DNA of 64,000 nucleotides, from positions 416,001 through 480,000 of the forward strand of contig OY970166.1 of assembly GCA_963706595.1 (NCBI GenBank). The letters are read 5' to 3'. Shown here in pieces: positions 1,799 to 8,371 of this stretch. The stretch's first letter is position 1; each line of letters begins with the position of its first letter. The notes under the pieces are model-generated. The model was not told the origin of the DNA and did not search any database. It saw only the letters and a program-made list of their open reading frames with translations. Source of the DNA: an uncultured cyanobacterium (GTDB taxonomy: Bacteria; Cyanobacteriota; Cyanobacteriia; Cyanobacteriales; Nostocaceae). A program made the position numbers and the translations under genes.

Positions 1799-1992
1799 AT
1801 TAAGTAAACCACTGTGACTGATGTCGGGTGTTGAAGCAGCAGTTGCATCCATCAGATGAATGCAACATAAACGTTAGCGTAGCTTGCCGAAGGCTACCAC
1901 AGAGGCGCAGAGGAAACGGAGTTAAGAGGGTTTGAGAGGTTTTTGGCGTTTAGTGGTTGAGTATTTTTTTATTTGTCAGTCCCTGTTCAGCT

Positions 1993-2187
1993 TTAAGCCA
2001 CTGGATAGCCAGCAGCCGCTAACGCCTCCTTAATTGCTGTTTCTGACGCTTGAGTTTCTACGCTCACAAATTTGGTTTGTGGATCAGCCTGAATGGTAGC
2101 ATTGGCATCAACTGTTTTCACTGCATTGGTAATGTTGGTTGCACAAGCAGAACAAGCCATATTGGGAACTGTCAGTTTGAGTATCAT
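1993..2187 (-). CDS. atx1: Copper chaperone (HMA domain, Atx1/CopZ-like), 64 aa
   Basis: MILKLTVPNMACSAC...AAAGYPVA with MxCxxC motif, directly upstream of the Cu ATPase. Confidence 0.9.
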   Translation of the reverse strand: MILKLTVPNMACSACATNITNAVKTVDANATIQADPQTKFVSVETQASETAIKEALAAAGYPVA

Positions 2188-2315
2188 AAATTTACGGTAT
2201 GGAATAAAAGAACGATCAAAACCAAGCTTGTATCTGCCCAATTGCAGCCTGCAAAGCTAACTCAGCCATGCAATTTGGCTTTTACTGATGACTAGCGGAG
2301 ATTTACCTTATATTC

Positions 2316-2347
2316 ATCCTAAACTCTCTAGCCAACTAGAGAGTCTA
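2316..2347 (-). promoter_or_regulatory. MerR/CueR-type promoter-operator for the atx1-ATPase operon
   Basis: Perfect inverted repeat ACTCTCTAG-ccaa-CTAGAGAGT (2323-2344) spanning the spacer between TAGACT (-35) and TAGGAT (-10). The 20-bp spacer is typical of MerR-family promoters. Confidence 0.75.
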
Positions 2348-2488
2348 TCAGAATTTACAAATCTTCAAAATTAAGATCATGTTCATGCGAACTAGAGATA
2401 AAACCTGAAAAAGGCTTTGCAGCGTGAGGGAGTTAACAAAGCACAATTTGGTCATAAATTCACAAATTTCAGCAGATCAAGTATATGT

Positions 2489-2624
2489 CAATACGCTTGG
2501 TGTTAAGAAAATTGTAGGTTGGGTAGAACGAAGTGAAACCCAACAAAGTCATGCAAATGTTGGGTTTCGTTCCTCAACCCAACCTACTTAGACGTTGACT
2601 TTTAGGCTTAACTGAACTGTATTG
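2489..2624. mobile_element. MITE with 10-bp target-site duplication
   Basis: TIRs CAATAC...TTAAG / CTTAA...GTATTG, flanked by AAGTATATGT at 2479-2488 and 2625-2634. Internal GTAGGTTGGGT..ACCCAACCTAC palindrome. Confidence 0.85.
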
Positions 2625-2682
2625 AAGTATATGTATAGCAACCGCCAAGGAAGGTTAAGACATAAACGGATAATCAAATTTA

Positions 2683-2854
2683 GAGGATATTTGAAAAGTT
2701 TTGGGCGAATATAATTCGCTACTACACAAGCAAAGTCCACCTGCGTGGACTAATGAAAAATTCAGGTTTTTAACCCGCGCAGGCGGGTTTTGTTTGTATA
2801 GCCGCGACTTCTAGTCGCCAGGGCTGTAATAAATTAGACTTTTCAAACAACCTC
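2683..2854. mobile_element. MITE (GAGG..AAAAGT TIR family)
   Basis: TIRs GAGGATATTTGAAAAGT / ACTTTTCAAACAACCTC with TA flanks. Same TIR family as 3374-3536. Confidence 0.75.
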
Positions 2855-3096
2855 TAAAGAGGTTTTGACTTCAAATCAGCAACGCCTGATTTCTGATAGC
2901 TTGTGTATTTCATCAACATCAAGAACTCCGAAGAATGCAATTCAACGGGGATCTAAGACTCTCGGTGTTGGCAAAGTATGAAGGATTAGATACATTCAAA
3001 AAGTCTACTACTGCTCATCAAAATTGCAGTCTTCGCCATAGCTAAACTTGTATGGACATATCTGAAAGTTGAGAGAAATTGACCCAAACTTTCAAG

Positions 3097-3149
3097 AAAA
3101 AAGGCTTGGATAAACCAAGCCCTTATGTATACCAAGCATTTACTACACC
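3097..3149 (-). ncRNA. Putative sRNA, array cassette A
   Basis: GATGA (3181-3185)-N19-TAAATT (3156-3161) promoter. Body GGTGTAGTAAATGCTTGGTATA, then terminator GGCTTGG-tttat-CCAAGCC-T6. Confidence 0.7.
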
Positions 3150-3249
3150 AATAATAATTTAATCTTTCTATGCCTTTAGTTCATCCTCCTATAGGATGTG
3201 TGCAAATAGCCGAAAACCTGATAAGTCAATAAATGGTTTATTTAACCAT

Positions 3250-3305
3250 AAAAAAAGGTTTGGCTATGAACCAAACCCTGATTATTGCTGTGCTTAACAA
3301 CGTAC
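3250..3305 (-). ncRNA. Putative sRNA, array cassette B
   Basis: GATGA (3339-3343)-N18-TACAAT, with TATAAT adjacent. Terminator GGTTTGG-N7-CCAAACC-T7. Upstream box split by a MITE. Confidence 0.65.
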
Positions 3306-3373
3306 TAAATTATAATTGTAAATTACTCTTTTTAAAATTCATCTTCCTTTAGTCAGTGGTCAAATATTATTAA

Positions 3374-3536
3374 GAGGTTGTTTTAAAAGTAGTTGGCTGT
3401 AATGTTAAGCACGATTTGATCCCCCCTAGCCCCCCTTTTTAAGGGGGGAACTAGAATCAAAGTCCCCCTTTTCAAGGGGGATTTAGGGGGATCTATAATA
3501 TTTTGCTACCGACAATAAGACTTTTAAAACATCCTC
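3374..3536. mobile_element. MITE inserted in the cassette B promoter
   Basis: TIRs GAGGTTGTTTTAAAAGT / ACTTTTAAAACATCCTC, TAA duplicated at 3371-3373 and 3537-3539. Internal CCCCC/GGGGG hairpins. Confidence 0.85.
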
Positions 3537-3592
3537 TAAGACTAATATGTGATTTTCTCTTGTGTTAATTCCATTCATCTATCAAAAGTATG

Positions 3593-3643
3593 AAAAAGGC
3601 TTGAACAAGAGCCAAGCCTTTATATACCAGGTGTTTACCATAT
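3593..3643 (-). ncRNA. Putative sRNA, array cassette C
   Basis: GATGA (3675-3679)-N19-TAAATT (3650-3655). Body ATATGGTAAACACCTGGTATA, terminator GGCTTG..CAAGCC-T5. Confidence 0.7.
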
Positions 3644-3845
3644 TCAGCTAATTTATAGATAAACTTATCTCATTTCATCTGTCTTAAAGTTGTGTACAAA
3701 TACTCTTAAATGTGATACTAAGCCTTGTATAGCTATAAACAAAATTTTACAAAAAATCTATACATATTGCTAATAAATTTATTCATCCTCTGGTAATATG
3801 TCATCTGATTTTAATCAAAATCTCATGAAAATTAGTTTTTCTCAC

Positions 3846-3900
3846 AAAGAAAACCCTGGCGTTGATTCCAGGGTAGATATATGTTTTTCAGGCATTAATG
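3846..3900 (-). ncRNA. Putative sRNA, array cassette G (divergent)
   Basis: Degenerate motif at 3932-3936, N19, TAGTAT (3907-3912), TATCA box at 3971-3975. Terminator ACCCTGG-N8-CCAGGGT-TTTCTTT. Confidence 0.55.
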
Positions 3901-4039
3901 AACTGAATACTAACACGAACAAAAAGTTATTTACCCTACCTATCGATATACAGGAAATGAATCTTATCTATGATAGGGTGACAAGATATTTTTTTTCCAT
4001 TAACTAAAAACTTGAGTAAGGCTCTCAGTTAAAACACAC

Positions 4040-4092
4040 AAAATAGGCTTGACTTTCGAGCCAAGCCTATATATACCAAGAGTTTACCATAT
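4040..4092 (-). ncRNA. Putative sRNA, array cassette D
   Basis: GATGA (4124-4128)-N19-TAAACT (4099-4104). Body ATATGGTAAACTCTTGGTATA, terminator TAGGCTTG..CAAGCCTA-TTTT. Confidence 0.7.
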
Positions 4093-4259
4093 TGTATTAG
4101 TTTAATTATGATTATACTAAATTTCATCTATCTATAGGTCATATCTAAATTTCTGGAAATATGATAATAATTTAGATTTATACAAGAAATTATTTTGGTA
4201 TTATTTAAACATCCATGATACTAATGGCAATTCATCAATTAGTGATTACATAGATTATA

Positions 4260-4420
4260 TATAGGACTCATATTTGATTTATGAAACACACGTAGGATGT
4301 GTTATCGAGGAGATTACGACACCAAGACTCAGAAGACGGTGCGTTAGGTTAAAGCCATAACACACCCTACATATACTACATATACTTAGATTTTTTCAAT
4401 AATCAAATCGGAGTCCTATA
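4260..4420. mobile_element. MITE (TATAGGACTC TIR family) containing a REP-like palindrome
   Basis: TATAGGACTCATATTTGATT ... AATCAAATCGGAGTCCTATA. Related copy at about 18612-18738. Confidence 0.75.
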
Positions 4421-4494
4421 CATACGAAATTTTATCTTGATGAAGAAATACATTTTATTATAAGTATTCATGCGAACATGATATGATTTTATAT

Positions 4495-4541
4495 AAGAAA
4501 GGCTTGGTTTACTGCCAAGCCTCAGTAGAAGTAGAATCTAT
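4495..4541 (-). ncRNA. Putative sRNA, array cassette E
   Basis: GATGA (4573-4577)-N19-TAAATT (4548-4553). Body ATAGATTCTACTTCTACTG, terminator AGGCTTGG-N7-CCAAGCCT-TTCTT. Confidence 0.68.
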
Positions 4542-4635
4542 CAAAATAATTTAGCTATTTGAATGGCATTATTCATCATCCAATAGGAAGTTTACAAATA
4601 TTTTACAAGGTGATATGGCTCGAATCTGTGAGCAT

Positions 4636-4689
4636 AAAAAGGTTTAGCATTTAGCTAAACCTCCATAGAAAGCAGTTATTCGACACACC
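4636..4689 (-). ncRNA. Putative sRNA, array cassette F
   Basis: GATGA (4721-4725)-N19-TAAATT (4696-4701). Terminator GGTTTAGC-N5-GCTAAACC-T5. Confidence 0.68.
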
Positions 4690-4899
4690 AAGATTAATTT
4701 AAACCTACCGTTTATTAGGGTCATCTTGCTACGGGATGTGTTTAACTATGTTGTAATATGATATGACGTTACTTGAACAAAGCTTATAGCCCATAAATCC
4801 TCTGGTAATTTTCTTAATACCAAGTTAAAATTACTTTTGAATTGCGTCCATAAAACCCCAGTTCATCCTCACCAAGATGGTAAATTATACACAACTACA

Positions 4900-6426
4900 C
4901 TAACTTGCAGGAACTAAATCAGTTAATATGAGCCTAAATGTTGTCCATCCCTCACTGCTTTCAACTTGAATAGTTCCTTGGAGTTTTTCAACTAACTTCT
5001 GCACTATAGATAACCCTAATCCTGTACCACCTTGATTCCAAATGTCAGCATTAGGGAGGCGATAAAATTTATCAAAAATTCGCGATAATTCGGCTGTGGG
5101 AATTTCTAAGGAATTACTAATAGTAATGATAGTTTTGGCGGGTATTTCCGAGGAATTATGATCTATACTCAGGATGATTTCGCCACCAGCCGGAGTATAT
5201 TTGCAGGCGTTATTGAGTAATTCTGCTAAAATTCTCTCTAAGCTAGTACCGTCTGAGAACAGCGATGGCAGATTTGAGGGCAGATTTAATTGTAAAATTT
5301 GCTGATGTTCTTGAACACGGACTTGAAACGGCTCAATTACCCAAGGTATCCATTGTTCTAAGAGTAAGACATCTGGAGTAATCAACGGACGGACTTCAGA
5401 TTCTAAGCGTTGTAAGTCTAGTAAATCATTAATTAGTGCCATTTCGCGATCGCACTCAATTTCCAACATTTCCAAATAGCGCTGATTTTCTTCAGGTGTG
5501 ATAGACAGTTGTAACATTTGAATCATCACCTTCATATTGCTCAGAGGCGATCGCAACTCGTGAGACAATAAATTCAAGAACTCATTTTTGAGTTCATTGA
5601 TTTCTGCCAATTGTTCTAAAAGTTGCTCTTGCTCAACTTGCTTTTGACGAGCCTCCATCGCCTGTTTGCGCTCAGTCACATCTCGGAAAATTAATACAGC
5701 ACCCGTAATCCGATCTTGATCATCTTTAATGGGTGCAGCACTGTCATCAATGGGAATCTCTGCACCATTTCGCGAAATCAGAATTGTTTCTGCTGGTAAA
5801 CCAACGACAGTCCCCTGTTGCAGGACTTTTGTGATCGGACTTTCTATAGGCTCGTGAGTTTCTCCATGAGCAATATTGAATACTTCTGATGAATTTTTCC
5901 CACAAGCTTCTTCCTGTTTCCAACCAGTGAGACTTTCAGCCACAGGATTCATAAAAGTGATCAATTCCTCAAAGTCGCTAGAAATTACTCCATCACTGAT
6001 ACTATTCAAAAGTGTAGTTAACCATTTTTGATGCGTTTTTAATTGTTTTTCTAAGTGATGTTTAGTCAGCGCTATTTCAATATTTATTTGTAGCTCTCTT
6101 TCTTTAAAAGGTTTTAGTAAATAGCCAAAAGGCTCAGTTACTTTGGCTCGATCTAAAGTTTTATCATCAGCATAAGCCGTGAGATAAATTATGGGAATAT
6201 CCAAATATTTGTGAATTTCATGAGCTGCTTCTATCCCATCCATTATCCCTTTTAATCTAATATCCATTAGCACTAAATCTGGACAAAATTCTAGAGATTT
6301 ATTAATTGCTTCTTGTCCTGAAGAAGCAATACCAGAAACTATGTAACCAAATTTTTGTAGCCGATTACGTAAATCTTTAGCAACAATAGCCTCATCTTCT
6401 ACTATGACAATTTTTACGTTTTTCAT
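4900..6426 (-). CDS. Hybrid response regulator-PAS-histidine kinase
   Basis: N-terminal receiver (VEDE, DLVLMD, KPF), PAS domain, HisKA (SHELRSPL), HATPase (NNACKY, GGTGLGL). Confidence 0.93.
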   Translation of the reverse strand: MKNVKIVIVEDEAIVAKDLRNRLQKFGYIVSGIASSGQEAINKSLEFCPDLVLMDIRLKGIMDGIEAAHEIHKYLDIPIIYLTAYADDKTLDRAKVTEPFGYLLKPFKERELQINIEIALTKHHLEKQLKTHQKWLTTLLNSISDGVISSDFEELITFMNPVAESLTGWKQEEACGKNSSEVFNIAHGETHEPIESPITKVLQQGTVVGLPAETILISRNGAEIPIDDSAAPIKDDQDRITGAVLIFRDVTERKQAMEARQKQVEQEQLLEQLAEINELKNEFLNLLSHELRSPLSNMKVMIQMLQLSITPEENQRYLEMLEIECDREMALINDLLDLQRLESEVRPLITPDVLLLEQWIPWVIEPFQVRVQEHQQILQLNLPSNLPSLFSDGTSLERILAELLNNACKYTPAGGEIILSIDHNSSEIPAKTIITISNSLEIPTAELSRIFDKFYRLPNADIWNQGGTGLGLSIVQKLVEKLQGTIQVESSEGWTTFRLILTDLVPAS

Positions 6427-6440
6427 GATGCAACCAGTAT

Positions 6441-8371
6441 TTATACTAGGGGAAAATCGATTTGAAATTCTACTCCGATATCGCTATTAATAGTGATATC
6501 TCCTGAGAGTTGACTACTTAAAGCATCGATTAGTTGCCAGCCTAATGATGCTATATTGTTAAAATCAAACTTGGGTGGTAAACCAATGCCATTGTCCCTA
6601 ACTATAAGTGAAATCTCATTCAGCGAAATATTTTGGATTTCAATGTTAATTTTACCCGACCTACCTCCAGGAAAAGCATATTTTAGAGCATTAGAGACAA
6701 GTTCATGAATAATTAAACTACAAGGAATTGCTGTATCTAAACCCAGCGAAATGCCATCATCAACCTGAATATATACATCAATCAAATCTGTATTTAATTC
6801 GTAGGAAGTGCATAAACTTGAGACTAAATCTTGGACATATTCATTTAAATTGATTTTGGCTAAATCTGGTGATTGATACATCTTTTCATGAACTAAAGCC
6901 ATTGAGGCGATGCGCTGCTGACTTTGCTGAAATATTGCCATATCTTTGGCATCTTCGATATATGCAGATTGCAAGTTTAGTAGGCTAGAAATAACTTGTA
7001 AATTGTTTTTAACTCGATGGTAAATCTCTTTTAACAGCACTTCTTTTTCTAGAAGTGATGCTTGAATTTGCTCATTTGACTGCTTGCGATCGCTAATATC
7101 TTCGACAACAGAAATAAAGTAATTTGGCTTACCAGAAGGTTCGCGCATTAAAGACACTGTGAGATTAATCCAGACGATGGAACCGTTTTTACGGAAATAG
7201 CGTTTTTCCAGAGAATAATTTGAAATCTCACCTGCTAACATCTGATTAATATGATCAATATCAATCTCCAGATCATCTGGGTGGGTAATATCCTGGAAAG
7301 TGAGAAACTGTAGTTCTTGGGATGTGTACCCAACAATATCACAAAGCTTCTGGTTAACCAATTGCCACTGTCCATTCGTGCCTACATGAGCAATCCCAAC
7401 AGCCGCTTGATGAAATGCTGCGCGAAATTGCTGTTCGCTTTCTCTTAATGCATTCTCAATTCGCTGGCGTTCGGTGATTTCTATTTGTAGTGAATCGTTG
7501 ATTTTTGTTAACTCAACTGTTCGTTGTTCAACTATATTTTCTAGTTGATCTAGTAGATTACTTAAAGCCACCTCTGCTTGCTTGCGCTCAGTAATATCAG
7601 TATGTGAACCTACCATCCGAACTACATTACCATTTTCATCCCACAGCCCTTGACCCCGATCCAAAATCCATTTGTAAGTCCCGTCTTTACATAAAACTCG
7701 ATGCTCGTTAGTGTAAAACGGTGTGATCTTAGAAAAATGATTTTGAACTGCTGTCAGCACCATGTCACGGTCATCTGGATGCACCCGCGTCATACGTTCA
7801 TTTAAGTAATTGGCAATCTCATGTTCTTCATAACCGAGCATTTCTTTCCAGCGCGTCGAAAAGAAAACCTCACTGGTCTTCACATTCCAATCCCAAATAC
7901 CATCATTATTACCACGTAAAGCTAACTGCCAGCGTTGCTCAGTTTCTCTTAGCACCTCTTCTGTGCGTTTGCGTTCAGCAATCTCCTTTGCTAGTTGGGC
8001 ATGACTGGGAAGGCTCAGGGCTTTAGGTATTAATGGGAACAATTCTATAGCTGTCAAAACAGACACAAAAGCCGTGATAGCTTTGATTAACCCAGATAGC
8101 CAATAAGTAGGATGCCAAAGCGTCCACACATCCATAACATGGGTTGTACCGCAAGCAACAATAAATGTGCTAAACATGAGCAATATCCCCCGAAAAGGAA
8201 TATCTCTTCGTTTGCGGACAAAATAGACCAGCATGACTGGAATAGAATAGTAAGCAAGGGCAGTTAAGGAATCAGAAATAACGTGTAACCAGACTAATCC
8301 CGGTTTCCAGAGATAGCAATGTCCGTGAGGAATAAACTGGGTAGGAAAAAAAAATTATCTAGAAGTTCCAT
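6441..8371 (-). CDS. Sensor histidine kinase with ethylene-receptor-like (ETR1-type) transmembrane domain, 2 PAS and HisKA_2; 1-nt frameshift near the 5' end
   Basis: The frame upstream of ORF-track Met 8234 reads [13 protein letters not shown]...[14 protein letters not shown], then ACGTTH; later [11 protein letters not shown]. The natural ATG at 8371 is out of frame at an A9 run (8346-8354). Confidence 0.85.

Follow-up and report, generated by a model that had tools for sequence, protein, structure and literature searches.

We describe an array of candidate small RNA (sRNA) genes in a 64,000-nt stretch of DNA from an uncultured cyanobacterium of the family Nostocaceae with a genome of the Nodularia type (the window; GenBank assembly GCA_963706595.1, contig OY970166.1, positions 416,001 to 480,000, forward strand). 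Coordinates are those of the window unless a contig or locus is named. The array comprises six minus-strand cassettes, A to F, and an apparently unrelated unit, G. Its anatomy, homology, order and distribution make it likely, in our judgement, that seven sRNA genes, each transcribed on its own, form a conserved island here, and that six of them are old paralogs of the Rfam family RF02596 (cyano_het_sRNA) that share a promoter and carry type-specific bodies. These RNAs would be transcribed together under common control and would act by base-pairing.

Anatomy of the array

An earlier note on this DNA, made from its letters alone, had claimed repeated minus-strand units with fixed box spacing. 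The composite pattern TATCA-N33-GATGA-N19-TAAAYT matched five times in the window, always on the minus strand (3156-3223, 3650-3717, 4099-4166, 4548-4615, and 4696-4763), and in 0 of 100 dinucleotide-preserving shuffles (0 expected). A scripted check of these five full units gave a start-to-start distance of 38 nt from TATCA to GATGA and placed an ATTTG-like box 22 nt upstream of GATGA; the low ends of the GATGA motifs fell at 3181, 3675, 4124, 4573, and 4721. Both the spacings and the GATGA positions were exactly those claimed. The promoter boxes consist of a -10 element, TAAATT, a near-invariant (A/G)GATGA at the -35 place, a partly palindromic CC-TATA-GG just upstream, and the ATTTG and TATCA boxes higher up. 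No sigma-70-like hexamer was found at the -35 position of the cassettes.

The cassettes stand in the order F, E, D, C, B, A, corresponding to the types T1-T6 defined below. Cassette F (T1; 4631..4767, minus strand, as are all the units) carries TATCA at 4763-4759, GATGA at 4725-4721 and the -10 TAAATT, followed by a predicted sRNA of ~57 nt (~4689-4633) with its terminator. A promoter and a predicted sRNA likewise make up cassette E (T2; 4491..4619; ~53 nt, ~4545-4493), cassette D (T3; 4036..4170; -10 TAAACT; ~55 nt, ~4092-4038), and cassette C (T4; 3588..3721; ~54 nt, ~3643-3590). The promoter of cassette A (T6; 3093..3227; predicted sRNA ~55 nt, ~3149-3095) contains a perfect TCCTATAGGA palindrome. 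Cassette B (T5; 3247..3385), the nearest to canonical RF02596, has a core promoter and a predicted sRNA of ~57 nt (~3305-3249). Its core, with GATGA at 3343-3339, is the same as in the others, and the TATCA box is missing because a 167-bp miniature inverted-repeat transposable element (MITE) separates the upstream box from the ATTTG box. This MITE (3372..3538) has 18-nt terminal inverted repeats (3373-3390 and 3520-3537, 94% complementary) and a TTA duplication. Removing it yielded a sequence resembling the type-5 cassettes of relatives, in agreement with the earlier proposal that unit B fits the pattern once a MITE is excised.

Every unit ends in a GC hairpin and a T-run. We counted 12 terminator-like hairpins between positions 2000 and 5500, against an expectation of 1.7 +/- 1.7; five of them, on the minus strand, belonged to units A, B, D, E, and G, and a sixth to a MITE. 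The hairpins of cassettes C and F were visible in RNA folds. Folding predicted a terminator hairpin in eight of eight RNAs, with z-scores of -2.3 to -4.1, and each predicted cassette RNA comprised a 5' region of 25-30 nt followed by this hairpin. The region had been called free of open reading frames (ORFs), and indeed no minus-strand ORF of at least 40 residues was found within 3136-4899. By sequence, each cassette is thus an autonomous unit of promoter, type-specific 5' region and standard terminator, as had been proposed. A small-peptide reading was tried and rejected: the frames that start at the ATG within GATGA, 2-32 codons long, are unconserved and lie upstream of the -10 element.

Unit G (3846..3990) has its terminator at 3874-3853 and differs from the cassettes in its promoter and in its longer body of ~75 nt (~3920-3846). 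It lacks GATGA, was missed by the family profile, and had no Rfam match at E values up to 10 in a search of 2700-5000. Of 16 related loci, 11 gave a blastn homolog of unit G, which sits between T3 and T4 wherever a locus has both, and a 16-nt core and the terminator arms were invariant in all 12 aligned sequences. The earlier view of unit G as a divergent seventh copy was right in that the unit is real and conserved; its promoter, its body length and the missing GATGA show that it is not a copy of the others. It appears to be a separate conserved sRNA-like gene, unrelated to the six cassettes.

Kinship with RF02596 and conservation of the types

All six GATGA cassettes aligned to RF02596 across model positions 1-56 of 56, with scores of 17.1-28.5 bits: F 27.8 (4637-4689), E 22.4 (4497-4552), D 17.1 (4042-4088), C 17.1 (3594-3639), B 28.5 (3253-3305), and A 17.2 (3099-3149). 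The full-length architecture of the family, a 5' region, the family terminator hairpin and a U-tract, is present in each. The canonical RF02596 gene of the same genome (80.8 bits, C1:3603474-3603529) shares its promoter boxes (TATCA, ATTTG, CC-ATAG-G, GATGA, and -10) with the window cassettes. For a non-circular test of homology, we built a profile solely from the canonical cassettes of 15 genomes and searched it against the 5.57-Mb genome. Its six best non-self matches were the six window cassettes, with E values from 9e-11 to 0.015 (cassette A, 9e-11). A profile of the 80 nt upstream of the canonical gene matched three of the six (E 7e-9 to 3e-3). Because the canonical-only profile, promoters included, recovers all six, the cassettes are diverged paralogs of the canonical RF02596 gene together with its promoter. 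The family profile found just seven cassettes in the genome, six of them at the window locus. The 5' sequence of the canonical RNA was identical in 15 of 15 genomes; this invariant sequence is not kept by the window cassettes, and a recognisable part of it occurs only in B (T5). The family had been thought undescribed. That claim fails in view of the full-length sub-threshold matches and of a promoter homologous to that of the canonical gene; the Rfam comparison proposed in the earlier note thus returned a described family, which weakens the claim of novelty, with every match below the gathering score.

The canonical gene lies 218 nt downstream of NsiR8 (RF02593, 87.4 bits) on the same strand. 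In Nostoc PCC 7120, NsiR8 starts at 4547556r and a validated sRNA of ~51 nt starts at 4547237r, according to the accessible text of Brenes-Alvarez et al. 2016 (PMC4734099), where the latter was detected at prolonged nitrogen deficiency and advanced growth stages. Since the two arrangements match, we infer that RF02596 is the sRNA 4547237r. The tandem of NsiR8 (L001:1775-1948, minus strand) and canonical RF02596 (L001:1501-1556, minus strand) is flanked genus-wide by an acyltransferase gene on one side and, on the other, by a conserved hypothetical membrane protein of 778 aa. An assignment of this 778-aa ORF as HetF was rejected: it had no Pfam or NCBIfam match, its named relatives among the 120 listed were all 'hypothetical', and HetF has a CHAT domain, which is N-terminal in the protein as published (accessible part of bioRxiv 10.1101/2020.09.09.290692).

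The type analysis covered 79 cassettes from 17 sources, and identities were calculated from 64 of these cassettes. The cassettes grouped into types T1-T7, which followed a collinear order in 17 of 17 sources with occasional losses. The transcribed 5' bodies showed an identity of 0.87 within and 0.44 between types, compared with 0.60 and 0.42 for the promoter spacers and 0.49 and 0.30 for the terminator loops. Because the bodies are alike within types and unlike between types, in a fixed order, the divergence between copies is old and the 5' sequence of each RNA bears the signature of purifying selection. The array is consequently not 'diversifying' at present, as had been suggested: the 5' regions are old ortholog types, near-invariant across genera and each fixed in its place. 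The suggestion that stem pairing is retained through compensatory changes fared better. In the terminator helix, 96.2% of cells were paired, and six of nine pairs had changes on both sides. As a separate observation, T7 ends the array in three other genera (L055:9356-9494, L056:9679-9817, and L128:4479-4616); its body falls between those of T5 and the canonical RNA, and it was absent from all Nodularia arrays examined.

Homologous cassettes, for which the earlier note had recommended a search, proved widespread. A covariance model of the cassettes (R1) matched in 74 of 141 Nostocaceae genomes, representing 35 of 68 genera, with 3-11 matches per genome in 72 of the 74 positive genomes; the matches listed were visibly clustered. 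With RF02596 itself, 61 of 121 Nostocaceae genomes, from the same 35 genera, had a single strong match each. A second RF02596 match just above the cut-off appeared in 17 genomes, and the three that were checked by coordinates (G057, G065, and G086) were array members.

Neighbouring genes and repeats

Upstream of the array, on the same strand, lie a hybrid REC-PAS histidine kinase (4900-6426) and an ETR1_N-PAS-HisKA_2 kinase (6441-8234). Downstream are a CopZ-like HMA protein (1993-2241) and a copper P-type ATPase (2-1852) that extends past the end of the window, both also on the minus strand. The order kinase-kinase-array recurred in all ten further genomes from the genus; the copper ATPase followed the array in eight of these, and in the remaining two the sequence runs out at a contig end on this side. 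Adjacency to copZ/copA was seen only within the genus, and the downstream neighbour varies in other genera. Synteny of both kinases with an array extends to three more genera: the same kinase precedes one in Amazonocrinis nigriterrae, Nostoc minutum NIES-26 and a third genus (G014). About 70 other loci, mostly from Nostoc, have the kinase ortholog with no array after it. Arrays in other genera adjoin RtcB, GNAT, beta-lactamase-type, and NmrA-like genes. Across the arrays compared, no consistently linked protein gene was found beyond the kinase pair. The CopZ-like protein and the copper P-type ATPase thus stand near an ETR1_N (ethylene-receptor-like) histidine kinase genus-wide. Plant ethylene receptors require copper supplied by such an ATPase, and the linkage of the copper genes with the ETR1_N kinase may be functional.

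The intergenic DNA around the cassettes is rich in repeats. The genome contains ~30 pieces related to the MITE in cassette B. A 47-nt inverted repeat (4256-4302 and 4378-4424, 74% complementary) between cassettes E and D is probably another MITE; the stretch surrounding it had 41 BLAST matches in the genome. The stretch 1853-3092 had 156 such matches. Paired GC hairpins at 2721-2802 gave near-threshold CRISPR-DR28 matches on both strands (33 bits, cut-off 35) and are probably a palindromic repeat element, not an array of clustered regularly interspaced short palindromic repeats.

Interpretation and comparison with known systems

Transcription of each cassette would start ~6 nt past the -10 element and end at the intrinsic terminator, giving predicted RNAs of ~52-57 nt. 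In each RNA, the leading 25-30 nt would form the target-recognition part of a trans-acting base-pairing regulator, so that each RNA, with its own 5' region, would pair with different mRNAs. A single factor reading (A/G)GATGA and its flanks may switch on the six cassettes and the canonical gene together. Such joint firing of seven genes on one signal is suggested because their promoter is held in common with the canonical gene and is found nowhere else in the genome, where a promoter profile scan gave no further significant site beyond the known cassettes. By analogy with 4547237r, our best guess for this signal is stationary phase or prolonged nitrogen starvation.

Several results weigh against this reading of the array. 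None of the six cassettes reached the RF02596 gathering threshold of 35.7 bits, and the link between RF02596 and 4547237r is drawn from context and naming. The both-sided changes in the terminator helix (61 cells, compared with 22 in shuffles, with 0 of 500 shuffles reaching the observed value) come from related sequences, so the shuffle control overstates their significance. The MITE in its promoter may have silenced cassette B. A search of sequencing runs listed 21, none of them an RNA run containing the stretch; the best DNA run had 0.31 of its words. Perfect-complement target words of 11-16 nt occurred at about chance level and yielded no convincing target; the best of those examined fall within coding regions, and the seven inspected matches of 13-15 nt (for T1, T2, and G) resemble coding sequence rather than translation starts. 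Pairing of the sRNAs with the translation starts of neighbouring genes was not significant in 36 tests (|z| <=2.5), and among the sRNAs themselves no pair had a z-score below -2.5.

Four other explanations were weighed against a conserved island of sRNA genes. One is that the RNAs act via a protein partner, which they would titrate or decoy or to which they would bind as guide-like RNAs through a common 3' hairpin handle, and not by ordinary mRNA pairing. The lack of a clear mRNA target would suit it, as would the invariant GTAAA and TGGTAT blocks common to T3, T4, and T6, which together with a possible 5' hairpin could be a protein-binding motif. This predicted hairpin showed one-sided changes only and no compensatory pair, and outside the kinase pair no protein gene is consistently present, the neighbours in other genera being unrelated. 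The 3' hairpin and U-tract, moreover, are a standard terminator with a covarying stem. We regard action via a protein partner as unlikely, and the constant 3' handle of a guide RNA, as envisaged in the earlier note, as unsupported: what stays constant is an intrinsic terminator of the ordinary kind, and the array has no protein gene that travels along with it. The position of the array between two co-directional operons throughout the genus would be expected if the cassettes were cis elements of those operons, either serial terminators insulating the kinases from copZ-copA or promoter decoys for a transcription factor. Insulation would need no type-specific conserved bodies, though, and the quite different neighbours of the cassettes in other genera (listed above), together with a canonical copy standing alone near NsiR8, make a cis role very improbable. 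We give no more credence to the cassettes being relics of a mobile or tandem MITE-like repeat whose boxes and hairpins are functionless, even though the surrounding spacer is full of MITEs and hairpin repeats are abundant in cyanobacterial intergenic regions. Measured against the features of a MITE (many dispersed copies, terminal inverted repeats, target-site duplications), the cassettes did not fit, with seven copies in 5.57 Mb and six of them at one locus. They keep the same syntenic place and type order across genera, and conservation is higher in their transcribed bodies than in spacers and loops, the opposite of decay.

The remaining explanation, a Nodularia version of the heterocyst-specific, HetR-dependent and DIF1-driven NsiR1 array, has next to nothing left in its favour beyond gross architecture: a tandem of ~55-nt genes that each have a promoter and a terminator of their own, in a host that forms heterocysts (accessible parts of PMC9045159 and PMC4030482). 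RF02399 (NsiR1) had no row among the 21 Rfam matches at E up to 10 within 2700-5000, and the DIF1 motif TCCGGA was absent from 3050-4900. The genome has its own NsiR1 array elsewhere. RF02399 gave 18 matches above the cut-off, 17 of which (39.5-75 bits) cluster with two sub-cut-off matches at C1:695805-697961 on the minus strand, 276 kb from the window array. This cluster sits just upstream of a CHAT-domain ORF in opposite orientation (C1:698484) that we take for hetF, and the units of the cluster carry TTCCGG at ~-35. Its layout agrees with that published for NsiR1, as far as the accessible parts of PMC9045159, PMC4030482 and bioRxiv 10.1101/2020.09.09.290692 describe it. The nearest CHAT-domain match to the window array is ~94 kb away or farther, so the window array is not adjacent to hetF. 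These results refute the NsiR1 explanation and confirm the earlier statement that the two arrays are distinct. The copy number of the genome's NsiR1 array (17, plus two weaker) exceeds the 12 reported for PCC 7120 and N. spumigena.

Returning to the island of sRNA genes, a bolder version of it is possible, though we would not call it probable. One promoter type, read by one activator or sigma factor, could drive an sRNA-only regulon of seven siblings with seven conserved seeds, with unit G as a lodger. Such a regulon would act as a hub of post-transcriptional control in late nitrogen starvation, stationary phase or cell differentiation, unnoticed in about half of the Nostocaceae genera.

Heterocyst-forming cyanobacteria are a model for bacterial multicellular development, and we know of roles for only a handful of their sRNAs. 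To a validated, functionally blank sRNA, the locus adds six conserved paralogs and one unrelated sRNA candidate. With orthologs in 35 of 68 sampled genera and one promoter type that marks a common input, the locus provides material for comparative target prediction. Furthermore, the Rfam threshold for RF02596 hides most of the family.

The array represents no new class of system: the parent family is already catalogued in Rfam and validated, and tandem sibling sRNAs are known. What seems to be undescribed is the array of six sub-threshold paralogs, with conserved types in a fixed order in half of the family's genera, and gene G. Our literature search found no description of the array, and the text of Brenes-Alvarez et al. 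2016, in its accessible part, makes no mention of an array of RF02596 paralogs (PMC4734099); supplements (Table S3 of PMC4734099 and the transcription start site file of PMC3610870) may list some of the genes.

Compared with known systems, the window cassettes are closest to RF02596. They share its length class and its two-part build of a 5' region plus an AGGYTTGG/CCAARCCT terminator, along with a homologous promoter and a full-length alignment to the model. The known gene is single-copy beside NsiR8, whereas the window holds six tandem paralogs elsewhere, with sub-gathering scores and conserved 5' sequences of their own. The NsiR1 array (RF02399, upstream of hetF in Nostoc sp. PCC 7120) is likewise a tandem of ~55-60-nt sRNA genes with their own promoters and terminators, and its copies are 'sibling' sRNAs with partly different targets (accessible parts of PMC9045159 and PMC4030482). 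In contrast to the window array, it is unrelated in sequence, stands at hetF, and has (near-)identical copies, where the window copies are deeply diverged, conserved types. Multicopy sibling sRNAs are also known in other bacteria (reviewed in PMC9045159, accessible part). They resemble the window array as paralogs with a common promoter logic and partly shared sequence. Mostly, however, such families share one seed and act redundantly; the paralogs in the window have different seeds, each conserved, and form a head-to-tail island. Qrr1-5 and OmrA/B are examples of sibling sRNAs.

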